Notes under the pieces: generated by a model
Seen by the model: the letters and a program-made list of their open reading frames with translations, nothing else
What the model was told of the DNA's origin: nothing
Database searches by the model: none
In this document: positions 1 through 15,865 of the stretch, piece by piece
Layout: every line of letters begins with the position of its first letter
How positions within the stretch are numbered: position 1 is the first letter of the stretch
Assembly: GCA_048938005.1 (NCBI GenBank)
Contig: JBHLMQ010000064.1
Coordinates: 1-15,865 of the forward strand
Reading direction: 5' to 3'
Length of the DNA stretch: 15,865 nt
Source: Promethearchaeota archaeon
Lineage (GTDB): Archaea; Asgardarchaeota; Lokiarchaeia; Sigyniarchaeales; SOKP01
Position numbers and translations under genes: made by a program

Positions 1-930
1 ATCGTCATCATTCGGATCTGTTAAATAGGTGGTCACTTCTTCCCCATCTGTTAGGCCATCATCATCGGAATCGTCATTGTTCGGATCTGTTAAATAGGTG
101 GTCACTTCTTCCCCATCTGTTAGACCATCATCATCGGAATCGTCATCATTTGGATCAGTACCATTGCTATATTCATCTAGGTTTGAAAGTTCATCGCCAT
201 CTGGATCGCCATCAGAATCATCAGCCAGTGGATCTAACCCATTTAATATTTCCCATCCATCAGGCATACCATCATCTTCCGAATCATCATCGTTCGGATC
301 TGTTAAATAGGTGGTCACTTCTTCCCCATCTGTTAGACCATCATCATCGGAATCATCATCGTTTGGATCTGTTAAATAGGTGGTCACTTCTTCCCCATCT
401 GTTAGGCTATCATCATCGGAATCATCATCGTTTGGATCTGTTAAATAGGTGGTCACTTCTTCCCCATCTGTTAAGCCATCATCATCGGAATCGTCATCGT
501 TCGGATCTGTTAAATAGGTGGTCACTTCTTGTCCATCTGTTAAGCCATCATCATCAGAATCGTCATCGTTTGGATCTGTTAAATAGGTGGCCACTTCTTG
601 TCCATCTGTTAAACCATCATCATCAGAATCGTCATCGTTTGGATCTGTTAAATAGGTGATCACTTCTTCCCCATCTGTTAGGCCATCATCATCGGAATCG
701 TCATCGTTCGGATCTGTTAAATAGGTGGTCACTTCTTCCCCATCTGTTAAACCATCATCATCAGAATCATCATCGTTTGGATCTGTGCCATTATTATATT
801 CCTCCAGGTTTGAAAGTCCATCGCTATCTTGATCTCCTCCTGAATCACTAATTAACGGGTCAAATCCATGTGTAATTTCCCAACCATCAGGCATACCGTC
901 ATCATCAGAATCAGAATCGTTTGGATCTGT
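1..930 (-). repeat. Coding tandem repeat: 69-bp (23-aa DPNDDDSDDDGLTDGEEVTTYLT) units punctuated by 144-bp (48-aa) units; TSP3-like DxDxDG calcium-binding repeats
   Basis: The anchor ggatc recurs at 14, 83, 152, 296, 365, 434, 503, 572, 641, 710, 779 and 923. Spacing is 69 bp except for two 144-bp intervals (152-296 and 779-923). Confidence 0.95.
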
Positions 931-3210
931 GCTATATTGATTCTCCGAGTATTGTGATAGCATATCAAAATCTATATCAATTATTTGATGGTTTCTGTGA
1001 CCAAAAAATGAATAATCTCCATATATTCCCTGCCATTCTATTCTTTTACCAGAATTACTTGTTTCTATGGTATACACTCCGTTATCATTACCAGCATCTC
1101 CACCTGTTACAACAACTTCAAGATCAGAATCGCCATTCAAATCACCAAGTGCAATCCCCACAGGAAGGGCGTCTATCTGATATATCCATGAAATAAGTCC
1201 GTTCTCACCGTTCAAAGCATAAATCTTGTTATCTTTACCTCCTATAACCACCTCCACTTTACCATCACCATCTACATCCCCTAATGATGGATCAGTATTT
1301 AGAGAATTTTCATAAGTCCATAAAACACTTCCATCTTCTCCATTTAAAGCAAATAGGGTTCCCATACCAAGTATTACTACTTCTAGATTCCCATCACCAT
1401 TTATATCACCAACTGCAGGGCTAGAATAAAAACCAAAATAAGGGCCTGCTCCTTCATAAACCCATAATATGCTCCCGTCTTCACCATCTAATACATAGAT
1501 AGTTCTATCACTGCTTCCCACCACCACTTCGAGTTTACCATCTTTATTTAAATCAGCCAGGAGGGGAGAAGAATATATAGAATCTCCTGTTTGAAAAACC
1601 CATAATAAGCTTCCATCTTCACCATTTAATGCATATACATACTGATCAAGAGACCCGACTACTGCTTCAAATTTTCCATCATTATCTATATCTCCTAAAG
1701 CTGGAGAACCCCATATTTCATCTCCTGTTTGATAAGTCCATGTTGTAGTATCAGCTTCGCAATTAAAAGAATATATATTGTGATCATCAGATCCTACAAC
1801 CGCTTCAAGATTTCCATCTCCATCTATATCTCCTAATGCTGGAATACCCCTAACAACACCTCCCACATCATATACTCTTATAAAATTTCCATCCTCAGCA
1901 TCCAATTGATAAAGTAATCCATTAATCTCCGCTATAAGAATTTCAAGCTTGCCATCATTATCCATATCTCCCAATACTGGGGATGAAAAAACCCAATCAT
2001 AGGTATAGATATCCCAAAGTGTAGTTCCATCTTCCCCATTTAAAGCAAGAATACAATAACTCCCACCTAATTTCCCAAAGACGACTTCTAACTTACCATC
2101 CATATCTATATCTGCTAATGCTGGAGAACCAACTATATCATAGAAGTATTGCGAAGTTTTCCATAATAATCTTGGGACTATTATCTTTGAGAGATCAGCA
2201 ATTGCTAATCCCGAATTATAATCTGCTATATATGCATAATCTCCACTCACATAAACACTACGTGCACTTCCAATCGTATCCTCATATACAGGAATTCCTG
2301 GATTTGTTGGGTTAGAAATGTCAATGACAGCCAACCCATAATCATAATCCGCGACATAAGCACAATCCCCACTTACATAAACTCCAGTTGCATACCCCTT
2401 TGTATCCTCATAAATTGGAGTTCCAGGATTCGTTGGGTCAGAAACATTAATGATTGCTAAACCACTAAGATCATTCGCTACATAGGCGTAGTTTCCACTC
2501 ACACGAACTTCTGTTGCATAGTCAGGAGTACTACGATACAATGGAGTTCCTGGATTCATTGGGTCGGAAACATCAATGATTGCTATTCCCGAAGTATACG
2601 TAGCTACATAAGCATACCCCCCACTCACGTATACATCCCATCCATAACCATTCGTATCTCTATATATAGGATCTCCTGGGGTTGTAGGATCAGAAACATC
2701 AATAATGGCTAAACCTGAAGTAGAAACTGCTACGTAAGCATACCCTCCGCTTACGTAGACGCCTAATGCTTGCGCATTTGTATCTTTATATACAGGATTT
2801 CCTGGGTTTGTAGGATCAGAAACATCAATAATAGCTAAACCTGAATAGGAAACCGCTATATAAGCATATCCTCCACTTACGAAAATATCCCCTGCAAATC
2901 CATTGGTATCCCTATAAATAGGAACTCCAGGGTTTATAGGATCAGAAATGTTGACGATGGCTAGTCCAGAATTTCCATCAGCAACATAGGCATAATTTCC
3001 ACTTACAAATACATCCACTGCAACCCCTGTAGTATTTTGGTAATATATAGAAGATTTTTTAAGCTCTTGTGGTATATTATTTACATCTACATGAATATTA
3101 TTAGAGAAATCAAATTTATTAATCAATAAGTTTGAGTTTAGAAGAAAAGGAAAGTTAATGATTAAAAGCCCTAATAAGAGTATTAAATATACTTTTTTCA
3201 AATTTTTCAC
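1..3210 (-). CDS. Large secreted/cell-surface repeat protein (signal peptide + LVIVD beta-propeller + FG-GAP/PQQ-like beta-propeller + TSP3-like Ca2+-binding repeats); 3' end beyond the window
   Basis: Manual minus-strand translation from GTG at 3210 (MKNLKKVYLILLLGLLIINFPFLLNS..., basic then hydrophobic N-terminus) stays open to base 1, giving 1070 codons. It contains 7 x 'VSGxYAYVA...GLAIIDVSDP' units, 8 x 'P(A/V)LGD(I/L)DxDGKLEVV' units and 'DPNDDDSDDDGLTDGEEVTTYLT' repeats. The start codon choice is inferred. Confidence 0.93.
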   Translation of the reverse strand, partial: MKNLKKVYLILLLGLLIINFPFLLNSNLLINKFDFSNNIHVDVNNIPQELKKSSIYYQNTTGVAVDVFVSGNYAYVADGNSGLAIVNISDPINPGVPIYRDTNGFAGDIFVSGGYAYIAVSYSGLAIIDVSDPTNPGNPVYKDTNAQALGVYVSGGYAYVAVSTSGLAIIDVSDPTTPGDPIYRDTNGYGWDVYVSGGYAYVATYTSGIAIIDVSDPMNPGTPLYRSTPDYATEVRVSGNYAYVANDLSGLAIINVSDPTNPGTPIYEDTKGYATGVYVSGDCAYVADYDYGLAVIDISNPTNPGIPVYEDTIGSARSVYVSGDYAYIADYNSGLAIADLSKIIVPRLLWKTSQYFYDIVGSPALADIDMDGKLEVVFGKLGGSYCILALNGEDGTTLWDIYTYDWVFSSPVLGDMDNDGKLEILIAEINGLLYQLDAEDGNFIRVYDVGGVVRGIPALGDIDGDGNLEAVVGSDDHNIYSFNCEADTTTWTYQTGDEIWGSPALGDIDNDGKFEAVVGSLDQYVYALNGEDGSLLWVFQTGDSIYSSPLLADLNKDGKLEVVVGSSDRTIYVLDGEDGSILWVYEGAGPYFGFYSSPAVGDINGDGNLEVVILGMGTLFALNGEDGSVLWTYENSLNTDPSLGDVDGDGKVEVVIGGKDNKIYALNGENGLISWIYQIDALPVGIALGDLNGDSDLEVVVTGGDAGNDNGVYTIETSNSGKRIEWQGIYGDYSFFGHRNHQIIDIDFDMLSQYSENQYSTDPNDSDSDDDGMPDGWEITHGFDPLISDSGGDQDSDGLSNLEEYNNGTDPNDDDSDDDGLTDGEEVTTYLTDPNDDDSDDDGLTDGEEVITYLTDPNDDDSDDDGLTDGQEVATYLTDPNDDDSDDDGLTDGQEVTTYLTDPNDDDSDDDGLTDGEEVTTYLTDPNDDDSDDDSLTDGEEVTTYLTDPNDDDSDDDGLTDGEEVTTYLTDPNDDDSEDDGMPDGWEILNGLDPLADDSDGDPDGDELSNLDEYSNGTDPNDDDSDDDGLTDGEEVTTYLTDPNNDDSDDDGLTDGEEVTTYLTDPNDDD
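1060..2170 (-). repeat. Eight FG-GAP-like / PQQ-like beta-propeller blades within the surface protein
   Basis: LADIDMDGKLEV, LGDMDNDGKLEI, LGDIDGDGNLEA, LGDIDNDGKFEA, LADLNKDGKLEV, VGDINGDGNLEV, LGDVDGDGKVEV and LGDLNGDSDLEV; most are followed by an ALNGEDGS(L/V)LW-type motif. Confidence 0.85.
2190..3045 (-). repeat. Seven LVIVD repeats (42-aa / 126-bp period) within the surface protein
   Basis: GNYAYVAD, GGYAYIAV, GGYAYVAV, GGYAYVAT, GNYAYVAN, GDCAYVAD and GDYAYIAD, each followed by a GLAIIDVSDP-like sequence at 126-bp spacing. Confidence 0.9.
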
Positions 3211-3383
3211 TTTTTTTTACATTATTTTTTATTAGATTTTGACAACTAGCAATTTATTCACTTAATTATTAAATCAATAAGGAATGATTTTTTACAATTT
3301 TATAAAAATGCTTATATTAGGTTGTATATAATAAAATATTGGAGGATTCAGATATCTCAAAAATGCTAAAGTAAATCCAAAAA
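3211..3383. promoter_or_regulatory. Divergent AT-rich promoter region between the surface protein and the wHTH regulator
   Basis: 173-bp head-to-head intergenic region with TATA-like boxes (e.g. tttataaa around 3298-3305). Exact promoter elements cannot be assigned. Confidence 0.45.
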
Positions 3384-4166
3384 ATGTCAACTGAAAAACA
3401 AATAACTATTATGAATCAAGCATCAATTGTTTCTAACATTAGTTTAAAGCACCCGAATGTTCAGAGAGTAATAAAAATTGCCGAAGAGATCGTTTCAGAA
3501 GATAAGATTTTATCTTTAGAAAATTTATATTATAAGGCAAAACGAAGGTTAAAAATTCCCCGTAAAGGGTTGAGGTTCATAATCCAGTATTTAGTCAATA
3601 AAAAGGTGTTGGTTGACCAATCAAAATTTACCCGACATTCAATTTTAGAACATCCTCTTAGAAAGTCAATTTATTATTTTATAAAGGATAATTTGGGTGT
3701 TCATTTATCTACTATTCGAAACTATTTCCATTCTGAAAATACGGGAACAGGGCAACTACTTTGGCATTTAGATATGCTATTAAAATTTAATTACATAAAA
3801 TCCATAAAAATGAAGAAATATTTAATATTTCTTCCCCGAGAGATTGATGATGAATCTGGGATCATCTATTTCTTGCTTAGAGATGAATTAAACTTTAGAA
3901 TTGTTCAATTATTATTAAAAAAAAAAGAATTAAAAAGATCAGATATCTATAAGAAGCTAGCAGAATCCCGTGAATTAGTATATTATCATCTAAATAATCT
4001 AATAGATGATAAGTTGATTAAAATTAAAGAAGATAAATATGTCTATATTAACCCTAAAAAAGTTTTATTTTGTGTTCCAATATATTCCATGAAGTTTTAT
4101 GAAGACACCCAAGATGCTTTGGAATTCAGGGATGGAAAAAAAATGTCTGATAAAACTCAAGAATAG
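3384..4166 (+). CDS. Winged helix-turn-helix transcriptional regulator (tandem wHTH, ArsR-like C-terminal domain)
   Basis: 260 aa, basic. The segments LEHPLRKSIYYFIKDNLGVHLSTIR...GQLLWHLDMLLKFNYIK and LRDELNFRIVQLL...RELVYYHLNNLIDDKLI match the archaeal tandem wHTH pattern. The N-terminal ~60 aa may be a third wHTH. Confidence 0.8.
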   Translation: MSTEKQITIMNQASIVSNISLKHPNVQRVIKIAEEIVSEDKILSLENLYYKAKRRLKIPRKGLRFIIQYLVNKKVLVDQSKFTRHSILEHPLRKSIYYFIKDNLGVHLSTIRNYFHSENTGTGQLLWHLDMLLKFNYIKSIKMKKYLIFLPREIDDESGIIYFLLRDELNFRIVQLLLKKKELKRSDIYKKLAESRELVYYHLNNLIDDKLIKIKEDKYVYINPKKVLFCVPIYSMKFYEDTQDALEFRDGKKMSDKTQE

Positions 4167-4171
4167 AATAA

Positions 4172-4190
4172 TTTTTTTCTTTTTTCTTTC
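4172..4190 (+). terminator. Oligo-T archaeal-type terminator after the wHTH gene
   Basis: T-rich tract (T runs interrupted by single C) starting 6 nt after the TAG stop at 4164-4166. Confidence 0.5.
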
Positions 4191-4272
4191 TATGATTTAC
4201 TGGGTGATAACCATCTCACAAGCGATAGGAATACAATGCTTTCATCCTTCATTTAAAGAAAAAGGGGGAGAT

Positions 4273-4479
4273 ATGATATTAAACAATGGTCTTTTTATTA
4301 TTCTTAATATTACTACATTTATTATCAGTTTATATCTTTTATTTGCAGTAATTTTACCTCTAGGTCCTCCATCTGAAGTTTTGATGGTCTATCTAGCATT
4401 ACCTCCATTATTTATTGGAATAGGAACCGTAACTCCATTGATATATTTTGGAATTAAAAAATTGAGTAAGATTGAATAA
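4273..4479 (+). CDS. Small two-TM-helix membrane protein (68 aa), hypothetical
   Basis: Same frame as track ORF 4099..4479, but ATG 4273 follows a purine-rich GGGGGAG motif and lies downstream of the wHTH terminator. Two hydrophobic segments are linked by GPPSE, with a basic tail. Confidence 0.6.
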   Translation: MILNNGLFIILNITTFIISLYLLFAVILPLGPPSEVLMVYLALPPLFIGIGTVTPLIYFGIKKLSKIE

Positions 4480-4494
4480 CTTACCAAAAAATAA

Positions 4495-6312
4495 TTATTT
4501 TATATAACTTCCAAATTGATCAAGTTTTCTTAATTGTTCTGAATTGAAAATAGGTCCATCTTTACAAACAGATACATCATTATTTTCACCAATACAACAT
4601 GAACCGCATAATCCTACACCACATTTCATTTTCCTTTCAAGTGATGCCTGTATTTCAATATTATTTGAATCAGCGATCTCAAGTACCCGCTTCATCATTA
4701 CTTCTGGACCGCACGTTATAATTAGGTCAATATTATTCTCTACTAATATATCTTCAATAGTATCAGTAACAAAGCATTTTTTCCCAACTGATCCATCATC
4801 TGTACTACACATCGTATTAGGAATAAGATCAATTAATCTATCACCAAATATCAATGATGCTTCATCTTTTGCGCCTATTGTGACAATCATGTTTTTCTTA
4901 TTTAATTTTAAAGGTTTAATTAGTGATGTTAGAGCAGCAATTCCCATACCACCACCAACTATAAGAATATTGGATGCATCTTCGTAATCCCAAGAATTCC
5001 CGAAAGGACCTCTAATACCAATATTATCGCCTTCATTCAGTTCAAATAATTTAGTGGTACCTTCACCTATTTTTTGTACAGTAATTTCAATAAGATTGCC
5101 ATCTATATTTGAGATAGACATTGGCAAAAAATCAATATCTGGAAGCCACAAGATCACGAACATTCCTGGTCTATATGCTCTTGCAATTCTTTCGTTCCTA
5201 ACAATGAAACTTTTAATTTCTGCGGAATGTTCTATTATAGATTCTATTTTTACTAAATCTGTTTTATATCGAGTAATATTTAAAACCATTTCCTCATTAT
5301 CTTTTGTTAAATCCTTTTGTTCTAGAATCCCCTTTTCAAGTGCTAAATCGTAAATTTCCTTTCCTCGTTCTGTTCTAACTATTAATGTCCTCCACCCCTC
5401 TTCACTCCCTATATTTCCTACGGAGATATCTGCAAATGATGCTGTATAATCAGAACATGAAAAACAAGCATTTCGAATAGCTTTATCATAAATAAAATTA
5501 AGTGGAATTTCTTTAGGAGAATTGTTAGTAATAATTTTCATTTTAAAGTTACTTTTTTCAGTGGTAATTTTAGAAATCTCATTAGAATTTATATCATATT
5601 GTTTAAAACATTCAGATAACAACTGATTATGATATGTCCCAAAGCAAAAAGTTCCAATTGACAATGTTACTAGATCAAATGCTTCAAAATCAAATCTTGG
5701 ATGATATTGCATTTTTCTAAGAGCTTGTATTTGACAAGGTGTACCAATTACAGCAATATCAGCAAATTCTTTATTTATTGCATCACCTATTAAAGAAAGA
5801 GTTGGACTTTGACTTGGTTTATATCCAACACTTTTGTATAATTCCTGTTGATTTATAGCAATTACAGGGAACGGTCTAAATTCTTCATCTTTATCAGTGA
5901 CTATAGCCGCATCAATCATTTTTGCTTCTAGAGCTATAGATAATAATGCAGTTATAGGCCCAGTTTCCATTGGGAGCTTGCCTTTAGCTTTATCAGTTAA
6001 TTTAACTGACACTATCCTAATATAATGCCCTAAAATTTTATCCTGTTTTTTACCAAATACCCATTTGTCTAACAATGATAGAGATATTTGATCTAATCCA
6101 GTTTTTGGACATAAATTATAACATAAACCGAATCCATCTCGACATGTACTCAAATCTTTACAAGATCCATCCTCAATAGGTATTTCTTTATCATAATCAA
6201 ACCTAATATTCGCACAAAATGCTCCACATGCCCCACAGTACAAACATTTACCAGTTTTAATTATTTCCGAATCTAATTCTTGCCAGCCTTTTTTAATTTT
6301 ATCAATATACAT
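4495..6312 (-). CDS. pyrK: Fusion protein: N-terminal ferredoxin + FrhB/FdhB/FpoF-type F420-binding domain joined to a C-terminal PyrK-type (dihydroorotate dehydrogenase electron transfer subunit; FAD/NAD/[2Fe-2S]) domain
   Basis: N half: CLYCGACGAFC, GLCYNLCP, VIGTPCQIQALRK, IGTFC, CFSCSDYTASFADISVG and LIVRTERG (FrhB family). C half, from about 5255: RPGMFVILW, IRGPFGN, VGGGMGIA, CGPEVMM, SLERKMKCGVGLCGSC and VCKDGPIF (PyrK/FNR family). Confidence 0.88.
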   Translation of the reverse strand: MYIDKIKKGWQELDSEIIKTGKCLYCGACGAFCANIRFDYDKEIPIEDGSCKDLSTCRDGFGLCYNLCPKTGLDQISLSLLDKWVFGKKQDKILGHYIRIVSVKLTDKAKGKLPMETGPITALLSIALEAKMIDAAIVTDKDEEFRPFPVIAINQQELYKSVGYKPSQSPTLSLIGDAINKEFADIAVIGTPCQIQALRKMQYHPRFDFEAFDLVTLSIGTFCFGTYHNQLLSECFKQYDINSNEISKITTEKSNFKMKIITNNSPKEIPLNFIYDKAIRNACFSCSDYTASFADISVGNIGSEEGWRTLIVRTERGKEIYDLALEKGILEQKDLTKDNEEMVLNITRYKTDLVKIESIIEHSAEIKSFIVRNERIARAYRPGMFVILWLPDIDFLPMSISNIDGNLIEITVQKIGEGTTKLFELNEGDNIGIRGPFGNSWDYEDASNILIVGGGMGIAALTSLIKPLKLNKKNMIVTIGAKDEASLIFGDRLIDLIPNTMCSTDDGSVGKKCFVTDTIEDILVENNIDLIITCGPEVMMKRVLEIADSNNIEIQASLERKMKCGVGLCGSCCIGENNDVSVCKDGPIFNSEQLRKLDQFGSYIK

Positions 6313-6906
6313 TTAATTTCCCTCCTGGAGTTGCTCCATGAATTCTTGAGCTTCTTTTTTTCCAAGTTCGAATGCTTCTAGATTTTTTTCCAAAGTAGAA
6401 CTAGGTACAAATTTTTTAATTGTTTGAATTGCAGATTCTTCAGAAATGATTCCAGAAAGGATTGAAAATGCCCCAAATAAGATTGAGTTACCATATACTA
6501 TGTTTCCGAATTTTTCAACAGCTAATTTCTGAACAGGAATGCTTAAAGATTTTAAGCTTTTTGCAGATTTGAACTCTCTAATAGTTGATGGATCCCATAT
6601 TAAAAAACCTGTATTATTGTCTTGCTTTAAATCACCTTTTTTGACCCCATCCGCAGATGCTTGAGATAATATGATTAAGAAATCATATGGTTTTAATGCT
6701 TTAGGATAATCTATTATTTTTACATTTTTATCTAAATCAACAACGACTTCTGCCCAACATCTACCACCCCGTGCTTCTGCTGAATATGCTTCAGTTTGAG
6801 TGGCTGCTAAATTCTCATACAGTGCACTTGCAGTAATAATCATCTTACTGAGAGTTATAACACCTTGTCCTCCAAAACCAGAGATACGTATTTCAAATCT
6901 AGCCAT
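6313..6906 (-). CDS. korC: 2-oxoacid:ferredoxin oxidoreductase gamma subunit
   Basis: EIRISGFGGQGVI, YSAEARGG, NSILFGAF and NLEAFELG motifs; follows the beta subunit. The symbol reflects family and gene order; the substrate is unproven. Confidence 0.9.
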   Translation of the reverse strand: MARFEIRISGFGGQGVITLSKMIITASALYENLAATQTEAYSAEARGGRCWAEVVVDLDKNVKIIDYPKALKPYDFLIILSQASADGVKKGDLKQDNNTGFLIWDPSTIREFKSAKSLKSLSIPVQKLAVEKFGNIVYGNSILFGAFSILSGIISEESAIQTIKKFVPSSTLEKNLEAFELGKKEAQEFMEQLQEGN

Positions 6907-6908
6907 CT

Positions 6909-7826
6909 TTACTTGCCCTCTAATGCAATATTCTGAATTTTAGCATATTGTTCTGAATATTCTGGTTTATCGGGGTCGTATCTGAATTCTCCAATAACAT
7001 ATTTATTAAATAGTTCATCATTAGTCATGAATTTGGCACGATTTATCCTTACGCAATTTCTTTTTATCCAATCTATCATGATTCCTGTATTGTCCATTAT
7101 TTCACCTTCTTCTCCCATATCTTCCGTTCCTAGACTATCTAAATTTTTTCTTCCAAAATATGTAACACAGGGAATAATTACTTCAATAACAGAAGTTCCT
7201 TTATGCCTTAATGCTTTTTTAAAATATTTCATTAAAGTTCGAGGATGGGCAACCGTAGTTCTTGCCACATAGGTTGCTCCAGCAGCAAGAGCAAGGTTCA
7301 CACCGTCACTTCTACTTTCAAACATTTTATACGGTGTTGTTGAACTAATTGCTCCATATAAAGTTGTTGGTGCGCTTTGTCCTCCAGTCATAGCATAAAT
7401 ACTATTATTAAACACTAATATGACACAATCTATGTTTCTTCGACAGATATGAATAAAATGATTTCCACCAATTCCTAAAGCATCTCCATCCCCAGAAAAT
7501 ACTATAGGTTTCATTTTAGGATTTGCCATTTTCATACCGGTTGCCATTGCTGGTGCTCTACCATGAAGTGCTAGAAATTTCTGTGAAGCGTGATGTACCA
7601 ATAATAATAATTGACTATAACAACCTATACCAATTATTACAGGATATAATTTAGGATCTAATTTTTCATCTTCAAAAACACGAGTGAATAGATGTCCTAT
7701 TATTCCATAGCCACATCCTGCACAGAATCTAGATGAATATGTGCCCAATAAATGTCCTCCCAAAGAATGCATTACGTAAGGATGCTCTAATTTTTCTTTT
7801 GGATACCTAGGTCCTAACCCTGACAT
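6909..7826 (-). CDS. korB: 2-oxoacid:ferredoxin oxidoreductase beta subunit (TPP-binding)
   Basis: FCAGCG, GIGC, LHGRAPAMATG, SGDGDALGIGGNH...NNSIYAMTGGQ and PCVT motifs; GGAGGT SD and TAATG overlap with the alpha subunit. Confidence 0.92.
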   Translation of the reverse strand: MSGLGPRYPKEKLEHPYVMHSLGGHLLGTYSSRFCAGCGYGIIGHLFTRVFEDEKLDPKLYPVIIGIGCYSQLLLLVHHASQKFLALHGRAPAMATGMKMANPKMKPIVFSGDGDALGIGGNHFIHICRRNIDCVILVFNNSIYAMTGGQSAPTTLYGAISSTTPYKMFESRSDGVNLALAAGATYVARTTVAHPRTLMKYFKKALRHKGTSVIEVIIPCVTYFGRKNLDSLGTEDMGEEGEIMDNTGIMIDWIKRNCVRINRAKFMTNDELFNKYVIGEFRYDPDKPEYSEQYAKIQNIALEGK

Positions 7827-9007
7827 TATTTGGCCACCTCCCTTATAACTTTTAAAATATCATTTGGGTGATGGAAGTCGACTACTTTCGGAATTCTTAT
7901 AATGGGAGTTTCAAGTTTAGTAACCCTTTCAACTTGTTCTGCTATAAAACCGGTATAATTTAATTCTGGTACTATGATTGCCTTAGCATCTTTGACTACA
8001 TTTCTTACTTTATCATCTGGAAAAGGCCATACTGTTATTAATCTAAATATTCCAACTTTTATCCCTTCTTTGCGAGCGACATCAACAGCTCGATAGCTCG
8101 TTCTTACTGGTAAACCATAGGAAATAATAACTATATCTGCATCATCCAACTTATATGTTTCTGTTAAAGAAATTTTATCCATATTAGACCTTATTTTCTC
8201 AAATAACGTTTCTGTATATTCTAATACCCTAGAAGTTGGAAGTCCTATTGAATTATGAGGTTGATGAAGAAACATTAATGGGCAATAATCTGTCCCTATT
8301 ATTGGAGGTTTTGGGATAATATATTCTCCAGTATTCTCATCTTTATATGAAAATTTATTTTTAAAATCTTTCGGTAATTCACGATTAATTACTCTCTTCA
8401 ATATTTCTTCACTTGATGGAATATTAACTGACTCATGAAGATGACCTAAATACGCGTCAGAAATAATAAATACAGGACAACGATAAGTTTCAGCAAAATT
8501 AAATGCAGTAATGGTTAAATCGAAAAGTTCTTGGCAATTCATCGGTGCCAAGGCAATAACTTGAAATTCTCCATTTCCAGGGAAACGTATCATCCCTAAA
8601 TCATTATGATGTGGTTCTGTGACGAATCCAGTTCCAGGCCCATTTCTCATAACATCTGCAAAAACAAAAGGGATTTCAAGATTAGCTGCCATGCTTATTG
8701 TTTCGACCATTAAAGAAAATCCAGGTCCTGAGGTGGCTGTCATGGATTTTGCTCCTACTAATGATGCTCCAATAACTGCATTAATGGATGCTAATTCATC
8801 CTCCATCTGTATACAACAACCACCTATTTCGGGTAATCGTTTAGCAAAATGTTCGATAACTTCCGTACTTGGAGTAATCGGATATCCTCCAAAAAATTTA
8901 AGACCTGCTGCAATAGCTCCTTCTGCCATAGCAACATTACCCATTAAAACATGGGTGCCCTCTGGTAAAAATTTCATACTTTTTTCTCCACTCAATCTAT
9001 TCACCAT
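7826..9007 (-). CDS. korA: 2-oxoacid:ferredoxin oxidoreductase alpha subunit
   Basis: GNVAMAEGAIAAG, GYPITPSTE, QMEDELAS, TATSGPGFSLM and RLITVWPFP motifs. Confidence 0.92.
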   Translation of the reverse strand: MVNRLSGEKSMKFLPEGTHVLMGNVAMAEGAIAAGLKFFGGYPITPSTEVIEHFAKRLPEIGGCCIQMEDELASINAVIGASLVGAKSMTATSGPGFSLMVETISMAANLEIPFVFADVMRNGPGTGFVTEPHHNDLGMIRFPGNGEFQVIALAPMNCQELFDLTITAFNFAETYRCPVFIISDAYLGHLHESVNIPSSEEILKRVINRELPKDFKNKFSYKDENTGEYIIPKPPIIGTDYCPLMFLHQPHNSIGLPTSRVLEYTETLFEKIRSNMDKISLTETYKLDDADIVIISYGLPVRTSYRAVDVARKEGIKVGIFRLITVWPFPDDKVRNVVKDAKAIIVPELNYTGFIAEQVERVTKLETPIIRIPKVVDFHHPNDILKVIREVAK

Positions 9008-9008
9008 A

Positions 9009-9284
9009 CTAAATTTTTACTTTTTCAGTCGCAATTTCTTTTTCTTCTTCTAAAACATAAATACTCCAATCAGGACAGCAATATTCACATCTACGGCACC
9101 CAGTGCAATACGCCGCTTTCCCTTCTTTTACTTTAGGGATATATGCAATTCTATAATTTAATTCATCACTCATTTCCAAAATACCTGTTGGACATATAAC
9201 TACGCAAGCCCTGCAACCACCACATCTGTCCCTATTTAGGAATAAAGAAAAGTTTTTTTCTTTATTTTCTATTAATTTCGGCAT
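9009..9284 (-). CDS. korD: 2x[4Fe-4S] ferredoxin / 2-oxoacid:ferredoxin oxidoreductase delta subunit
   Basis: CGGCRACVVICP and CTGCRRCEYCCPD motifs; 1 bp from the alpha subunit start. Confidence 0.88.
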   Translation of the reverse strand: MPKLIENKEKNFSLFLNRDRCGGCRACVVICPTGILEMSDELNYRIAYIPKVKEGKAAYCTGCRRCEYCCPDWSIYVLEEEKEIATEKVKI

Positions 9285-9314
9285 TTTATCAACTTTTAAG
9301 AAGAGTACTTAATT

Positions 9315-9325
9315 AAAAAAAAAAA
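9315..9325 (-). terminator. T11 tract, possible terminator after the MttB-family gene
   Basis: Eleven consecutive A on the + strand (T on the minus strand), about 30 nt downstream of the TGA stop at 9355-9357. Confidence 0.5.
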
Positions 9326-9354
9326 TCTTTGAATTGTTATTAATTTAGGGAAAT

Positions 9355-10782
9355 TCACTTTAAATGTTCATTTGCAATTTTATCCAATTCTTTTACGAGT
9401 TCTTCACTAATGGGTTTAATTGGCGATTTATTTAGCAATTTTGAAGCTTGCTCTTTTGCCCTCTGTCTTGCAGATTTGGATCCTGCCTCTCTCCACGAAT
9501 CACGAGTCATTCTGTCAATAATTAAACTAGGGAGGAACAATTCTTTTTTAAAATATTTCAAAGTTGAAGGATGAGATAATAATTCTTCTTTATCTCCATA
9601 ATCTTTCAGGATTTCTGACGCAAAGGGGGATCCATAATCTTCAATACCTTGGAGAAATCTCTTAACCATCCCTATAATTTCATTATCAATTATTAACTTT
9701 TCAATACTCTGCGTGGATTCAAAATCAAGCATTCCGGGCCCAGAAACCATATTAATTCCTGCTAATCCTGCTAATAATGCTCCCATTCCCGCCTCGAAAC
9801 CAGCTTGACTATCAGGAATTTTAGAATCACTTAAACTCATATAAGCATGAGTAGGTATGTTCAAAAACTTTCCTATCTCAATATCACCTAAATTTATCAT
9901 CATTGTTTCAATTGCCCCCATAGGAGTTGTTCCGTATTTCATATCAAAAACAGCAGGAGAACCACCCCATATCAATGGCGCTGCCTTTTTCGTTAATTGA
10001 ACAATTACTACTCCTGCAAGGCATTCAGCACAGTGTTGGGTAATAGATCCTATTAAAGTGATTGGAGCATTAGCGCCAGCTAACGGCATTGAAACAAATT
10101 CCGAAGGGATCATACTTTTAGCTGCATCAATTAAAGATTGAGTTGTAAGATCAGACCATTTAAGAGGGGGGCTAGGACAAGCATCAAATATGGCTAATGG
10201 CTTTCTTGCTAAATCAACTTCTGATAATCTACATGCTAAAAGGATTTTTTGCATAATCGAAAAACTTTCTTTACGAAATGTTCCAGTTACAATAGGCTTA
10301 TAACAGTTAGATAAAGCAATATATAATCTATGCCAATCTTGGGCTTTTTTTGGAACATCCTGATAAATTAAAGCTGTACTTTGAGCATCAATATATTTTA
10401 ATTGCTCAACAACCTTTGAAAATCTGATAAAATCTTTTGATAAACCCTCTCTAATTTCTCCTGTTTCCTCATCAAGTATAAAAATAGCAGCGGATCCAGG
10501 ATCAAAATTAACATTATCTTTCTTTAGTGAAATATGTTTATTACCCTCTCGATCATAAAGATTAATTTCACTTGGTACAGTTTTTAAACATTTATCAATC
10601 AAATCTGGTGGAATAAAAAAACGTGAATCCTTATTGTCTATATTATGTTGATTAAATAGTTCAATTGCCTCTTGATTCTCAATAAAGATGCCTTGAACTT
10701 CAAGAATAGATTTTGCTTCCTCTAGGATTAATTTTTTATGTTCGTCATCTAAAATTTTTATCTTTGGTCGAATAATAGGCAT
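9355..10782 (-). CDS. mttB: Trimethylamine methyltransferase (MttB) superfamily protein, non-pyrrolysine type (amine/betaine:corrinoid methyltransferase)
   Basis: 475 aa. SPPLKW, GANAPITLIGSITQHCAECLAG, DMKYGTTPMGAIE, SDSKIPDSQAGFE and GMLD...SIEKLIIDNEI are MttB-family motifs. There is no in-frame TAG; Leu (TTA 9832-9834) precedes SDSK at the Pyl-equivalent position. Confidence 0.9.
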   Translation of the reverse strand: MPIIRPKIKILDDEHKKLILEEAKSILEVQGIFIENQEAIELFNQHNIDNKDSRFFIPPDLIDKCLKTVPSEINLYDREGNKHISLKKDNVNFDPGSAAIFILDEETGEIREGLSKDFIRFSKVVEQLKYIDAQSTALIYQDVPKKAQDWHRLYIALSNCYKPIVTGTFRKESFSIMQKILLACRLSEVDLARKPLAIFDACPSPPLKWSDLTTQSLIDAAKSMIPSEFVSMPLAGANAPITLIGSITQHCAECLAGVVIVQLTKKAAPLIWGGSPAVFDMKYGTTPMGAIETMMINLGDIEIGKFLNIPTHAYMSLSDSKIPDSQAGFEAGMGALLAGLAGINMVSGPGMLDFESTQSIEKLIIDNEIIGMVKRFLQGIEDYGSPFASEILKDYGDKEELLSHPSTLKYFKKELFLPSLIIDRMTRDSWREAGSKSARQRAKEQASKLLNKSPIKPISEELVKELDKIANEHLK

Positions 10783-10809
10783 TTAGATATTCTCCCTTAT
10801 TTTATAATT

Positions 10810-11688
10810 CTAAAGAGAATCAATAATTCTTCGGATTTCTTTAATTGTTTTTGGAGATGTGCCACAACATCCCCCAACGATTTTTGCTCCTAGTTCAATC
10901 ATTTCTTGAATGTCATTAGCAAATCGCTTTATAGGTTGTTCATAATAAGTTTTATCCCCTTTAATTATAGGTTGACCTGCATTAGGTTTTACTGAAAGTG
11001 GTTTATTGGTAACTTCTACTGCATCCTTTAACAATTCAAGCATATCATTGGATCCTAATGTACAATTTGCTCCAATTACATCTACATTCTCATTATCTAA
11101 AGCTTTGATACATTTTTCCAATGAATTTCCCATTATTGTAAAGAAACCTCTTTTAGTCTTTTTATATGTAATTGAGGCAATTAAAGGTTTCTTAGAGACT
11201 TCTCGTACTGCTTTAATTGCTGTTAACATTTCTTCAAGATCCGAAATTGTTTCAATATGCCAAAGATCAACACCTTTTTCCAACAATTTTGCTTGAGTCG
11301 AGAAGCTAGAATACCATTGCTCATTAGAAGCATTTCCTATTGGTGGTCTAAATTCTCCTGTAGGCCCGATATCACCTACAATCAAGCATCTAGAAGGGCA
11401 TACCTTTTTTATATTTTTTAAAGCATTTTCTATAATCTCTTCAATTCGACTTTCAAGATTATGATGACTTAAATTCAAAGGAGTTGAGCCAAAAGTATTT
11501 GTTTGACACATATCTGAGCCAGCATCATAATATGATTTATGAATTTCAGAAATTATTTCTGGTTGTTCGATATTTAAGATATCTGGAATTTTCCCAGATG
11601 TTACCTTTCTTTTAATTAATTCAGTTCCAAATCCTCCATCGAAGAGTATGATCTTGGAATCATCATTTAACCAATCTTGAAATGACAT
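10810..11688 (-). CDS. Stand-alone homocysteine S-methyltransferase (MetH N-terminal / BHMT-type Zn-binding domain)
   Basis: LFDGGFGTEL, IHKSYYDAGSD, TNTFG, GDIGPTG, IETISDLEE, IGANC, KPNAGQP and IVGGCCGTSP motifs (three Zn-ligand Cys). At 292 aa it has no pterin- or B12-binding domain. Confidence 0.92.
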   Translation of the reverse strand: MSFQDWLNDDSKIILFDGGFGTELIKRKVTSGKIPDILNIEQPEIISEIHKSYYDAGSDMCQTNTFGSTPLNLSHHNLESRIEEIIENALKNIKKVCPSRCLIVGDIGPTGEFRPPIGNASNEQWYSSFSTQAKLLEKGVDLWHIETISDLEEMLTAIKAVREVSKKPLIASITYKKTKRGFFTIMGNSLEKCIKALDNENVDVIGANCTLGSNDMLELLKDAVEVTNKPLSVKPNAGQPIIKGDKTYYEQPIKRFANDIQEMIELGAKIVGGCCGTSPKTIKEIRRIIDSL

Positions 11689-11720
11689 ATTTTATTTAAT
11701 CACTCCAAAAACTATAAAAA

Positions 11721-12368
11721 TTACTTATTTATAAGAGATTTAACTAATTTGACAGCTTCAATAGCATTTTCAGCAAATCCATCAGCATTACACTCTTCTA
11801 CCCATTTGCTTGTTACAGGAGCACCTCCGAGAATGACCTTGAACCTGTCAGCCATTTTTTTTTCTTTTAAATGATCAATAACTTTTTTCTGTCCAATCAT
11901 GGTAGTTGTTAAAAGAGCAGAAACACCAATTATGTTAGCATCTTTTTCTATAGCTTTTGCGATAATTGTTTCAACAGGAACATCCGCACCTAAATCATAT
12001 ACTTCATAACCATAAGCTCTTAACATTGTAGCTACAATAGTTTTTCCGATCGAATGAATATCTCCCTCTATTGTTGCCATTACAACGATACCACGGGAAA
12101 TTTTGTTCAATGTATCTTGAAGATGTGGAATTAGAAGATCTAAACAATTTTGCATTATTTGTGCTCCACGCATTAACTCGGGTAAGAAATATTCACCATC
12201 TTCCCATAATTCTCCAACTTTCCGAATTCCAGCGGCAAATCCGTTTTCAATAACATCAAGTAAATTCATACTTTCCTTTATGGCTTTATTTGCATATTCA
12301 AGGGCTTTTTCTTCGTCTAAATTTACGATAGCTGATGATATCTCTTCATAAACTTCTTCTTTTGACAC
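11721..12368 (-). CDS. Methyltransferase cognate corrinoid protein (MttC/MtbC/MetH cap + B12-binding domain)
   Basis: VGELWEDGEYFLPELM cap motif, EGDIHSIGK (DxHxxG base-off His-on), SALLTTTM and GGAPV; GTG start preceded by GGAG. Confidence 0.93.
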   Translation of the reverse strand: MSKEEVYEEISSAIVNLDEEKALEYANKAIKESMNLLDVIENGFAAGIRKVGELWEDGEYFLPELMRGAQIMQNCLDLLIPHLQDTLNKISRGIVVMATIEGDIHSIGKTIVATMLRAYGYEVYDLGADVPVETIIAKAIEKDANIIGVSALLTTTMIGQKKVIDHLKEKKMADRFKVILGGAPVTSKWVEECNADGFAENAIEAVKLVKSLINK

Positions 12369-12515: not shown

Positions 12516-13892
12516 TTGAGTGATTGGATGTCTAAAAAGTTTTCTAAAGAACCACTTAGAGGAATGGATGACTATTACCCAGCTGATTTGCGCGAGGTTA
12601 ATTGGATAATTGAAAACATTAAAGATGTTGCAGAAAGATATGGTTATGAAGAATATGAAACTCCACAAATAGAGCCTGTTGAAATTTTTGCTGCTAAATC
12701 TTCTGATGAATTGGTTAATGAACAATCATTTATAATGGAAAAAAAAGAAGGAGAAAGACTTATTTTAATCCCAGAACTTACTCCCTCTTTAGCTCGAATG
12801 GTTGCAAAGAAAAGCCAAGAGCTCAAGAAACCTATTCGGTGGTTTTCTATACCAACATGTTTCAGATATGAAAGACCTCAGAAGGGTCGCCGAAGGGCTT
12901 TCATTCAACCTAATATAGATATTTTAGGTGAAGAAAGTCTTTATGCGGATCTTGAGATCTTCAACATAATTGTAGATATTTTTACTCAATTTGGAGCTAC
13001 TTCAGAGCAATTTCAAATTTATTATAATAGCAGACGATTTATGGACTCAGTATGTAAGTATATACTTGAAATAAGAGAAGATATGTCGCCTTTAGTTTTC
13101 AAAATATTAGATAAATCTGATAAAATGGATGATACTGAATTTGAAAAACTTGTAATTGAGACATTTCAAGATGAAGTTATAATTCAAGGCATATTAAAAT
13201 TGAAAGATGCTAAAGGTGTTAGTGAGTTATTAAAAAAATTTGATAATATACCAGAAGGATTTTATGAGTCTAAAGGTTATCTCGAATTGATAAATTTTGA
13301 ACAATTAATAAAAGAAGTAGATATTTCTAATTACTGTACATTTTCTTCAGGAACAGTCAGGGGACTTGATTATTATACTGGAATAATTTATGAAGTATTT
13401 GATACTGGAAAAGAAAATATAAGAAGTATTTTTGGAGGAGGTCGCTATGATGACCTTCTATCAATATTTTCAGATGAAAAAATAACTGGTACAGGATTTG
13501 GTATGGGAGTTTATATGTTTTCCTTGTTTTTAAAAACTTACAATTTAATTCCAGAGGAAATTAAAGAGAAAGACTATAGTGATACAATATACATTGCATC
13601 TATAAATGAAGATATGTCAACATATGCATTTGAACTTGCTAGAACTATCCGGGACGAAGATTTTCCATGTATTATTGATTATAGATTTAAAAACCTAAAA
13701 AATCAATTAAAAAAAGCCAGTGATTTAGGAATTATTATCGTTTTAATTTTAGGACCAGAAGAATTAGCAGAAAGAAAAGTAACAATTAGGAATATGATCT
13801 CTGAAGAACAAAAAACTATTTTTTTCGATGAAGTAATAGATGAGATCTACCAAATTATTGATGAATTTAGCGATAATAAATTTGACCAATAA
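12516..13892 (+). CDS. hisS: Histidine--tRNA ligase
   Basis: RGMDDY, PELTPSLAR, FRYERPQKGR, VRGLDYYTG, GGGRYDDL and GFGMG motifs plus a C-terminal anticodon-binding domain. The start is TTG 12516 or ATG 12528. Confidence 0.96.
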   Translation: MSDWMSKKFSKEPLRGMDDYYPADLREVNWIIENIKDVAERYGYEEYETPQIEPVEIFAAKSSDELVNEQSFIMEKKEGERLILIPELTPSLARMVAKKSQELKKPIRWFSIPTCFRYERPQKGRRRAFIQPNIDILGEESLYADLEIFNIIVDIFTQFGATSEQFQIYYNSRRFMDSVCKYILEIREDMSPLVFKILDKSDKMDDTEFEKLVIETFQDEVIIQGILKLKDAKGVSELLKKFDNIPEGFYESKGYLELINFEQLIKEVDISNYCTFSSGTVRGLDYYTGIIYEVFDTGKENIRSIFGGGRYDDLLSIFSDEKITGTGFGMGVYMFSLFLKTYNLIPEEIKEKDYSDTIYIASINEDMSTYAFELARTIRDEDFPCIIDYRFKNLKNQLKKASDLGIIIVLILGPEELAERKVTIRNMISEEQKTIFFDEVIDEIYQIIDEFSDNKFDQ

Positions 13893-15188: not shown

Positions 15189-15865
15189 ATGAATTTTGTC
15201 GAGGATTTAATTCAATCAATAAAAGAAAAGAAAAACGTTATTTGTATGGGACTTGATCCTAGAATGGATAATGAGGGAGAAATTCCTCAATATTTAATTC
15301 GAGAATTAGAAGAACCAGATAAAATTATTTCTGAATTTAACAAAATTTTAATTGAAAATACCTATGATTTAATTCCAGTTATTAAACCCCAAATAGCCTT
15401 TTATGAAAAGTATGAAGCTCTAGACGCATTAAAAGAAACCGTAAGATTTGCTCATAAAAATGATTTATTAGTTATATTAGATGCAAAGCGAAATGACATC
15501 GGGAGCACATCTGAAGCGTATGCATATTCTTTATATGAAAATTTTAATGCAGACGCGTGTACGATAAATGCTTACTTAGGATTTGATGGTGTAAAACCAT
15601 TTTTGCATTATAAAGAAAGGGGGGTTTTCATTCTTGTAAAGACATCAAATCCAAGTAGTACAGAATTTCAGGATTTATTTAGTGTAAGATTGGAAGATAT
15701 TTCTAACGATATTGTTCAATATAAAGCTGAAACACAAATTTTAAAGAGGAATTATATCCAAATCGCAGAATTAATAAATAAATGGAGCAAAAATCTATCA
15801 CGATTTTCTGATTTCACTAATTTAGGAGCAGTAGTGGGGGCAACTTTTTCTCAAGAATTAAAAAA
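15189..15865 (+). CDS. pyrF: Orotidine-5'-phosphate decarboxylase, type 2 subfamily (partial; runs off the window)
   Basis: Manual translation MNFVEDLIQSIKEKKNVICMGLDPR...KPQIAFYE...ILDAKRNDIGST...TINAYLGFD...VKTSNPSS...GAVVGAT, with the catalytic DxKxxD motif. It is absent from the ORF track because there is no stop in the window. Confidence 0.95.
   Translation, partial: MNFVEDLIQSIKEKKNVICMGLDPRMDNEGEIPQYLIRELEEPDKIISEFNKILIENTYDLIPVIKPQIAFYEKYEALDALKETVRFAHKNDLLVILDAKRNDIGSTSEAYAYSLYENFNADACTINAYLGFDGVKPFLHYKERGVFILVKTSNPSSTEFQDLFSVRLEDISNDIVQYKAETQILKRNYIQIAELINKWSKNLSRFSDFTNLGAVVGATFSQELK

Follow-up and report, generated by a model that had tools for sequence, protein, structure and literature searches.

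A ferredoxin–FrhB–PyrK fusion protein encoded directly downstream of korDABG in one order of Asgard archaea

The fusion gene, its two halves and its operon

The stretch of DNA analysed here (hereafter the window) comprises 15,865 nucleotides of contig JBHLMQ010000064.1 from a Promethearchaeota archaeon (assembly GCA_048938005.1) and carries a gene for a 605-amino-acid (aa) protein in which a ferredoxin-like domain and an FrhB-type reductase domain for coenzyme F420 are joined to a complete PyrK-type module. An earlier note, made from the letters of the window, had described this single frame and its composition, which the open reading frame (ORF) and the Pfam and NCBIfam matches bear out, and had put the junction near 5255-5270, close to where it was found (about residues 344-352; Table 1). 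The ORF lies on the minus strand, a point that the note left unstated, and the note's junction coordinate is sensible on that strand only. Directly upstream, on the same strand, the window holds a complete four-subunit 2-oxoacid:ferredoxin oxidoreductase (OFOR) set, with alpha, beta, gamma and delta subunits all present (korDABG).

In Pfam scans, the F420-reductase region was matched by FrhB_FdhB_N (residues 117-175, E 1.4e-11, 44.8 bits against a cut-off of 22) and FrhB_FdhB_C (residues 185-337, E 9.8e-37, 126.6 bits against a cut-off of 23.3), and the C-terminal region by DHODB_Fe-S_bind (residues 559-594, E 6.3e-12); a match to NAD_binding_1 (residues 452-543, E 0.0023, 19 bits) is under its 22-bit cut-off. 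The PyrK equivalog NF000796 covers residues 352-603 at 261.4 bits and passes its cut-off of 224. The NCBIfam models for F420-hydrogenase beta subunits and FpoF span residues 16-355, with the FrhB models over residues 92-355, all under their cut-offs, and because TIGR03289 (frhB, 159.4 bits against 331.5) and NF040616 (FpoF, 100.1 bits against 475) both miss, the fusion is neither a hydrogenase beta subunit nor FpoF. The N-terminal ferredoxin-like domain presumably binds two [4Fe-4S] clusters and serves in docking and electron entry.

The fusion is a real gene, and an assembly chimera is excluded. The stretch is present in the runs of nine studies (sediment and mangrove metagenomes, with no RNA run among them), and the domain junction is bridged by assembled contigs from two other studies, one spanning 4753-5446 with no differences (X5 record 12) and another spanning 5036-6171 with two differences (X6 record 20). 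The earlier note had allowed for a chimeric assembly or for halves that are split genes in all relatives; neither was found. A search of a 5.8-billion-protein collection, in which 311 matches were scored out of 8000 candidates, returned among its best 120 relatives only proteins of 591-624 aa, at 71-100% identity and 98-100% coverage.

Across an alignment of 29 fusions reaching down to 43% identity, 16 cysteines, the presumed cluster ligands, are invariant in all 29 and fall into four groups: C23/26/29/33 and C51/57/64/68 in the ferredoxin-like domain, C193/223/283/286 in the FrhB domain, and C564/569/572/583 in the PyrK module. The GGGxG motif for nicotinamide adenine dinucleotide (NAD) in the nucleotide-binding domain (G453, G454, G455, G457) is likewise invariant. 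Mean column identity is alike across all domains (0.74-0.84), and the linker region (residues 341-365) has a mean column identity of 0.78 and no indels in the 29 fusions. An AlphaFold2 model of the whole chain, built from 101 sequences, reached a mean pLDDT of 92.5 and a pTM of 0.88, which fits a predicted fixed arrangement of the two halves. Structure comparison with Foldseek found no solved chain covering both halves, and the best ESM Atlas matches were bacterial Fer4_22-PyrK fusions with scores of 0.75-0.76, too low for a usable lead, and the Atlas has no structure of this protein.

The N-terminal half (ferredoxin-like plus FrhB-type domains; N-half) aligns end to end with 8riu_B (E 8.7e-53) and 8rja_E (E 9.4e-44), and in fold it matches them with template-modelling (TM) scores of 0.83 (root-mean-square deviation, rmsd, 2.4 A) and 0.80 (rmsd 3.5 A), respectively; TM scores to FrhB chains are 0.79-0.83. 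It is far more distant from hydrogenase FrhB (about 1e-33) and from HCAR (E 2.7e-12; TM 0.57). In the alignment, C193, C223, C283 and C286 fall on PC.IQ and C..C motifs that are conserved in 8riu_B and 3zfs_C, and on that basis they are putative [4Fe-4S] ligands. In the accessible text of PMC11493965, 8riu_B is described as the zeta subunit of the CO dehydrogenase (CODH) of Ca. Ethanoperedens thermophilum; its ferredoxin domain (residues 1-83, two [4Fe-4S]) anchors the subunit and precedes an F420-reductase domain (residues 84-349, [4Fe-4S] and flavin adenine dinucleotide, FAD) as well as a short C-terminal tail, and the subunit enables F420 reduction by CO dehydrogenase. FwdI (8RJA chain E) is given the same role in formylmethanofuran dehydrogenase, and both Ca. 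Ethanoperedens complexes are reported there to couple substrate oxidation to F420 reduction (PMC11493965).

The C-terminal half (C-half) matches NfnA 4ylf_A (E 4.1e-33), NfnI-S 5jca_S (E 4.3e-31) and the PyrK chains 5ksw_B and 1ep1_B, with TM scores of 0.80 to 4ylf_A, 0.83 to 5jca_S and 0.85 to 5ksw_B. Its first [2Fe-2S] ligand is a cysteine, as in PyrK, whereas 4ylf_A and 5jca_S carry aspartate there; the Asp(Cys)3 ligation of the NfnA cluster is linked to an unusually high cluster potential, as far as PMC8097209 was available. The nearest paralog of the C-half in the genome is canonical PyrK (39% identity), and a quick tree groups the PyrK halves of 11 fusions in a single clade that is separate from canonical PyrK (SH-aLRT 91).

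In the window, the korG TAA is directly followed by the fusion ATG, with GGAGGG a few bases upstream, and across 29 loci the gap between korG stop and fusion start is 0-5 nucleotides (median 1), with a GGAGG-like motif within korG. Thirty-eight fusion loci from species genomes were examined, four of which begin inside the fusion gene; korG lies directly upstream on the same strand in all 34 that hold upstream DNA, and the full korD-A-B-G set is present in 27 of the 28 with at least 3 kb upstream, including the most divergent (L062, 41% identity). The five-gene order is also kept in two further families of the order (f2 and f4), at 38-54% identity. The conserved cysteines of KorB presumably bind a [4Fe-4S] cluster, and KorD presumably donates electrons to the fusion directly.

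Table 1. Features of the window, with positions counted from its first letter.
Feature	Position	Strand	Remarks
Whole fusion gene, 605 aa + stop codon	4495..6312	-	Single ORF, ATG start, stop at 4495-4497
N-terminal ferredoxin-like domain, aa 1-90	6043..6312	-	Two four-Cys motifs; aligns with 8riu_B residues 11-83
FrhB-type F420-reductase domain, aa 91-343	5284..6042	-	Pfam FrhB_FdhB_N/C; presumed [4Fe-4S] + FAD + F420 site
Conserved short junction, aa 344-352	5257..5283	-	Linker without length variation
PyrK-type module, aa 353-605	4498..5256	-	FAD barrel, NAD(P)-binding Rossmann domain, C-terminal Cys4 [2Fe-2S] domain; NF000796
korG, gamma subunit	6313..6906	-	POR domain, E 4.9e-24; stop abuts fusion ATG
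korB, beta subunit (thiamine pyrophosphate, TPP, binding)	6909..7826	-	TPP_enzyme_C, E 1.7e-30; C35, C38, C69, C220 invariant in 28 sequences
korA, alpha subunit	7826..9007	-	POR_N, PFOR_II; NF006412 406.4 bits against cut-off 411
korD, delta subunit, 2 x [4Fe-4S] ferredoxin-like	9009..9284	-	Fer4 families; eight Cys invariant in 28 sequences
MttB-family methyltransferase without in-frame stop, 475 aa	within 9355-12368	-	TIGR02369 366.9 bits against cut-off 525
Homocysteine-S-methyltransferase-type methyl-transfer protein, 292 aa	within 9355-12368	-	Upstream of korD
Corrinoid protein, 215 aa	within 9355-12368	-	Upstream of korD
hisS	12516-13892	+	Beyond methyltransferase cluster
pyrF (orotidine monophosphate decarboxylase)	15189-15863	+	Beyond methyltransferase cluster, 9 kb from fusion

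Altered operons were recorded in two genomes. In genome G197, a 1036-aa LAGLIDADG_3 ORF, possibly a mobile insertion, lies at L039:13-3120 and in L124; the korDAB part is on a separate contig, and korG in this genome begins with TTG, at a point that corresponds to about residue 14 of KorG in the window. In genome G188 (L108, C1:1703000-1715000), the operon is kept from the corrinoid gene through korA, korB matches no further than residue 169, and both korG and the fusion are absent, through either a deletion or an assembly join.

The MttB/corrinoid/methyltransferase cluster upstream of korD was considered as an obligate partner and rejected, as only 10 of the 27 loci that have the kor operon in full contain it. 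A promoter and terminator scan returned 44 sigma-70-like sites against 49.2 expected, under a sigma-70 model that does not apply to archaea. The genes pyrF and hisS are also near the operon in L055; with pyrF nearby, the PyrK-like half could be misread as part of pyrimidine biosynthesis. On the other side of the fusion, positions 1-3210 (minus strand, running off the window) encode what is probably a cell-surface protein. It is large, its N-terminus is signal-like, and it contains seven LVIVD repeats together with an FG-GAP/beta-propeller region and acidic D- and T-rich repeats in a long array; ORFs on the opposite strand at 3-659 are likely shadows of the repeat. A 260-aa protein at 3384-4166 (plus strand) has weak helix-turn-helix matches (HVO_0163-type, TrmB), all under cut-offs, and is overlapped by a 126-aa hydrophobic ORF at 4099-4479 (plus strand) that has no family match; both point toward the fusion's 3' end, in convergent orientation.

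Distribution and genomic setting

An exhaustive HMMER search of 1.84 billion representatives at 50% identity gave 11,357 matches. Among the best 150, the full-length fusions form two clusters, P0121 (70%) and P0123 (43%), with fragments besides, and the remaining matches are separate FrhB-like or PyrK-like proteins. No other FrhB plus PyrK architecture was seen among the representative matches of odd length, of which P0188 is a PyrK-PyrD fusion. The nearest stand-alone family to the N-half is P0126 (30-36% identity, 28 metagenome loci). In six P0126 loci scanned with Pfam, cdhA lies upstream in four, with cdhB between in three of those four, and the other two loci have other neighbours; the order cdhA-cdhB-FrhB-like is that of Ethanoperedens. 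With P0126 after cdhA in these four loci, the N-half belongs to a clade of plug-in F420 reductases.

A metagenome contig, L147, carries at 2021-10291 five genes on one strand, namely cdhA and the genes for an FrhB-like protein (402 aa), a fused gamma-alpha subunit of an OFOR (555 aa), an OFOR beta subunit (303 aa) and a dihydrolipoamide-dehydrogenase-like flavoprotein (455 aa); these are the same three ingredients as at the fusion locus (OFOR, F420 module and NAD(P) flavoprotein), but as separate genes.

In Asgard archaea, the fusion was found in 86 of 400 genomes (E < 1e-80), all within the window's order, and in none of 246 genomes of the phylum outside it; an architecture and taxonomy check of this kind had been proposed in the earlier note. 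By family, it is present in 81 of 135 genomes of the window's own (f1), in 1 of 1 of f2, in 4 of 4 of f4 and in 0 of 14 of f3. These genome counts and the co-occurrence counts that follow were made by hand from search tables. KorA matches in f1 are bimodal, with orthologs at 71% identity or above and paralogs at 38-45%, and among the 135 genomes 77 have both the fusion and the KorA ortholog, 51 have neither, 4 have the fusion only and 3 the KorA ortholog only. Each of the four fusion-only genomes is cut at a contig end, and of the three KorA-only genomes two end at contig ends and one has an operon truncated inside korB; where fusion and KorA are on different contigs, the contig breaks fall within the operon. 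Because related genomes are not independent, the co-occurrence is descriptive and carries no statistical test. In the sister family f3, KorA was matched (E <= 1e-40) in 2 of 5 genomes searched, and in one of these two, which is a complete genome, the gene after a distantly related korDABG (40-50% identity) encodes a major facilitator superfamily (MFS) transporter and the fusion is absent.

The earlier note had asked whether a separate pyrK stands beside pyrD in the genome. It does: contig C57 carries a canonical pyrK of 283 aa whose frame overlaps that of a 308-aa pyrD, and there is therefore no need for another PyrK. The window itself lacks pyrD by Pfam scan, as the note had said, although pyrF is present, and no pyrD was found beside the fusion at the 38 loci by tblastn, which used the window's own proteins only.

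The capacity to make F420, also raised in the earlier note, is present, with CofD, CofH and CofE above cut-offs in the source genome and CofE matched in 153 of the order's 154 genomes. The match, over 244 model positions and at C97:175157-175930 in the source genome, lies in open frames of about 470 aa in most of the family's genomes and of about 265 aa in genus g2, and CofE seems to be fused to another domain in the source genome and its relatives. Matches to the Fno family are under the cut-off (100 and 82.6 bits against 149.8), as are those to Mer.

Twelve FrhB-family matches were found in the genome, 11 of them over the Pfam cut-off, and several stand in clusters with HdrA, HdrB-like and MvhD genes; with an NfnB-like fusion among them as well, FrhB modules are repeatedly put to use as plug-ins in this organism. 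Contigs C12, C78 and C63 (L113, L114 and L106) hold five more FrhB paralogs (374-500 aa), with neighbours that include genes for a double HdrA of about 1000 aa, a CCG-domain HdrB-like protein and MvhD (FlpD); C78 also has a NiFe-hydrogenase large-subunit gene, and C63 a 279-aa PyrK-like gene. On the minus strand of C95 (10871-14489; L105:4872-8490), a gene of the PyrK family that resembles NfnA (294 aa) overlaps a gene of 915 aa in which a ferredoxin/FrhB module is fused to an NfnB/GltD-like unit (Fer4_20 and Pyr_redox_2), and two glutamate dehydrogenase genes lie directly downstream. The C95 pair may form an F420-linked complex of the Nfn or glutamate-synthase type.

Proposed function and alternatives

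Translational coupling to korG and co-occurrence with kor indicate that the protein serves a 2-oxoacid oxidoreductase as a dedicated subunit rather than acting as an enzyme on its own. It is therefore moderately probable, in our view, that the KorDABG encoded upstream has the 605-aa protein as its fifth subunit and electron outlet, wiring 2-oxoacid oxidation to F420 and/or NAD(P)+. The earlier note had named KorD as a docking idea only and had not weighed the korDABG context. The data directly support the architecture, the conserved ligands, the operon coupling, the co-occurrence, the capacity for F420 biosynthesis and the separate pyrK-pyrD pair; binding to Kor, use of F420, use of and specificity for NAD or NADP, the way in which the electrons run and the 2-oxoacid that serves as substrate are what we infer.

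In such a complex, the TPP site of KorAB would oxidatively decarboxylate the 2-oxoacid, and single electrons would pass by way of the cluster of KorB and both clusters of KorD into the two clusters of the fusion's N-terminal ferredoxin-like domain, and from there to the [4Fe-4S] cluster and FAD of the FrhB domain, where hydride transfer would reduce F420. The PyrK module ([2Fe-2S] to FAD) would act as a second outlet or inlet of the same flavin centre, toward NAD(P)+ or from NAD(P)H. The complex could thus deliver the electrons of 2-oxoacids to F420 and/or NAD(P)+ without free ferredoxin, and it could also equilibrate F420H2 with NAD(P)H.

Several observations weigh against a dedicated Kor subunit. 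The whole unit is absent from about half of the genomes even within the same genus and is therefore accessory. The operon of L039 in genome G197 is an exception to the conserved order, with the 1036-aa LAGLIDADG_3 ORF between korB and korG, and all Kor subunits fall under their equivalog cut-offs (KorA 406.4/411, KorB 191.7/364, KorG 125.7/235 and KorD 62.8/93 bits). Gene order and coupling also fit a soluble partner fed by free ferredoxin, and the binding of the fusion to KorDABG and its activity are things we infer. F420 use is proposed by analogy with relatives at about 30% identity, because the FrhB half is under every NCBIfam FrhB and FpoF cut-off, and some proteins of the FrhB family, among them HCAR, which was matched here, work without F420. 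Finally, low-potential electrons sent straight to F420 or NAD(P)+ would waste energy, which calls for a physiological reason.

A soluble partner is the likeliest of the alternatives, though on balance it seems rather unlikely. The protein would then bind no Kor and would be a free-standing redox hub, passing electrons from free ferredoxin to F420 and/or NAD(P)+, or a one-chain F420H2:NAD(P)+ transhydrogenase; both had been offered in the earlier note and may hold as partial descriptions. Every cofactor site needed is present in one chain, soluble FpoF is a ferredoxin:F420 oxidoreductase in Methanosarcina, and with the Fno-family matches below cut-off another link between F420 and NAD(P) would be useful. 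A general hub, however, would not be expected to track one kor ortholog (77 genomes with both, 51 with neither) or to be translationally coupled to korG in all 29 loci measured, and the nearest solved relatives are bound subunits, anchored through the same N-terminal domain in the account available from PMC11493965. An explanation without F420, in which the FrhB half is an FAD/Fe-S wire or acts on another substrate and the unit is a 2-oxoacid:NAD(P)+ oxidoreductase, appears improbable. It is favoured by the sub-cut-off NCBIfam scores for F420 enzymes by family members such as HCAR that use ferredoxin instead and by the precedent of NAD(P)-linked 2-oxoacid oxidoreductases that carry an additional flavoprotein subunit in Azoarcus, but reduction of F420 has been proven for what are by far the closest relatives of the N-half (E 1e-53, with HCAR at 1e-12), F420 biosynthesis is universal in the order (CofE 153/154), and a plain wire would need no full flavin domain.

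It is also conceivable, though unlikely, that the protein is hard-wired to Kor as an Nfn-like unit for flavin-based bifurcation or confurcation, with the FAD of the FrhB domain as a three-way junction whose branches would be hydride exchange with F420, the low-potential [4Fe-4S] chain to Kor, and a [2Fe-2S]-FAD branch to NAD+. The reaction would be 2 F420H2 + NAD+ + acyl-CoA + CO2 <-> 2 F420 + NADH + 2-oxoacid + CoA. If this were true, F420H2 could drive reductive carboxylation of acyl-CoA in an Asgard archaeon, the reverse reaction would pool the electrons of 2-oxoacid and NADH into F420H2, and a new class of flavin-based bifurcating enzyme, built on an FrhB module, would be at hand. The cofactor topology parallels that of NfnAB, with two [4Fe-4S] clusters, a hydride-accepting FAD and a PyrK-like [2Fe-2S]/FAD subunit (PMC8097209, as far as available). 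NfnA and NfnI-S are among the best matches of the C-half, and the NfnA-like gene beside the 915-aa FrhB-NfnB-like fusion shows that this genome combines F420 modules with Nfn parts. We know of no FrhB-family flavin that bifurcates. The Cys4 ligation of the [2Fe-2S] cluster, as in PyrK and without the Asp(Cys)3 that the consulted part of PMC8097209 connects with high potential in NfnA, counts mildly against it.

The remaining explanation takes the protein at its public name, as an ordinary PyrK, the NAD-linked subunit of dihydroorotate dehydrogenase B, with an inert or accessory N-terminal extension. It can call on the NF000796 match above cut-off, on canonical PyrK as the nearest paralog of the C-half and on pyrF 9 kb away in the window. 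Against these stand the canonical pyrK that overlaps pyrD on C57, the lack of a neighbouring pyrD described above, an N-half that is as conserved as the C-half with all cluster cysteines invariant, and the separate clade of the fusions' PyrK halves; this explanation is highly improbable and close to refuted. By the same C57 pair, the proposal of the earlier note that the protein might be an F420-coupled subunit for dihydroorotate dehydrogenase is effectively refuted.

The named records among the best 120 relatives (most of the 120 are unnamed) read 'dihydroorotate dehydrogenase electron transfer subunit', which is probably a functional misnomer and which in metabolic reconstructions would wrongly be counted as pyrimidine biosynthesis. 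Among known lineages, Asgard archaea stand nearest to eukaryotes, and models of how eukaryotes arose hinge on the way in which these archaea dispose of reducing power in fermentation and syntrophy. A dedicated F420- and/or NAD(P)-reducing Kor subunit predicts, for one large uncultured order, a 2-oxoacid oxidoreductase that hands its electrons directly to F420 and/or NAD(P), not to ferredoxin. If so, the expected yield of ferredoxin, H2 and formate from the breakdown of amino acids and organic acids would change, and the principle of the F420-reductase plug-in would extend from CO dehydrogenase and formylmethanofuran dehydrogenase to 2-oxoacid oxidoreductases.

Comparison with known systems

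The claim of the earlier note that no characterised enzyme pairs FrhB with PyrK has held. The search of representatives finds the architecture in this family only, and literature searches turned up neither this fusion nor, for Asgard archaea, a Kor linked to F420; the combination of FrhB and PyrK modules thus had no earlier description, although the supplements of PMC9012536 and PMC11493965, which list FrhB paralogs and their gene clusters, might contain related cases. In its accessible text, a survey of archaeal fusion proteins mentions FrhB for Fsr only (PMC11237513). Fsr (7NP8, 7NPA) is indeed a precedent for an N-terminal ferredoxin plus FrhB unit fused to a redox unit (E 7e-29), but the unit fused there is a sirohaem sulfite reductase, and only the N-half superposes (whole-chain rmsd about 14 A).

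NAD(P)-linked OFORs are already known. In Azoarcus, phenylglyoxylate:NAD+ oxidoreductase (PadEFGHI) and 2-oxoglutarate:NADP+ oxidoreductase (KorABC) are NAD(P)-linked through an extra flavoprotein subunit, and they share with the proposed complex the idea that such an added subunit lets an OFOR-type enzyme reduce pyridine nucleotides; they differ in being bacterial, with no known involvement of F420 or FrhB. NCBIfam Pad models gave no match on the fusion, and PadE, PadG and PadI matched KorG, KorA and KorB weakly. The PyrK of dihydroorotate dehydrogenase B (1EP1-3, 5KSW) resembles the C-half in passing NF000796, in its Cys4 [2Fe-2S] motif and in fold (TM 0.85); unlike PyrK, the fusion is not beside pyrD, carries an F420-reductase module in the same chain and belongs to a kor operon. 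With NfnAB and NfnI (4YLF, 5JCA), the fusion has in common two [4Fe-4S] clusters, a hydride-site FAD and a PyrK-like [2Fe-2S]/FAD arm. It is nevertheless a single chain tied to the kor operon, with an FrhB domain in place of the GltD-like NfnB and Cys4 in place of Asp(Cys)3, and thus shows neither the cluster ligation nor the NfnB partner that mark NfnA.

Closer in setting are the FrhB paralogs of anaerobic methanotrophic (ANME) archaea. In the portion of PMC9012536 that was available, the FrhB6 paralog of ANME-1 is clustered with pyruvate:ferredoxin oxidoreductase genes and another ANME FrhB paralog with the CODH alpha/epsilon genes; these complexes are proposed to run oxidatively to reduce F420, on the argument that F420H2 (about -340 mV) is too weak to drive the reverse reaction. 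The coupling of CODH to F420 has since been proven, and the OFOR counterpart is still a prediction, as these sources present it (PMC11493965, PMC9012536). As described there, FrhB6 is like the fusion in being an FrhB-family gene beside 2-oxoacid oxidoreductase genes, with the same proposed coupling of oxidative decarboxylation to F420; unlike the fusion, it is a separate gene without a PyrK module, in another phylum and with Por-type neighbours (PMC9012536).

The nearest known counterparts are CODH zeta and FwdI, which make a ferredoxin-type enzyme an F420 reducer. Like them, the fusion has a ferredoxin-like domain (two [4Fe-4S]) followed by an FrhB-type domain ([4Fe-4S] and FAD), and relatives of the N-half are encoded beside the genes of a partner enzyme (cdhA-cdhB-frhB-like); both the plug-in architecture and the adjacency to partner genes are found in the fusion, which lies directly after korG. 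Unlike them, with which it shares about 30% identity, its putative partner is a 2-oxoacid oxidoreductase, not CODH or Fwd, and where CODH zeta and FwdI end in a short C-terminal dimerisation tail, the Asgard protein carries a complete PyrK module. What is known, then, is the plug-in F420 reductase on a ferredoxin-type enzyme; what is new is the pairing of FrhB with PyrK and its attachment to a kor operon.

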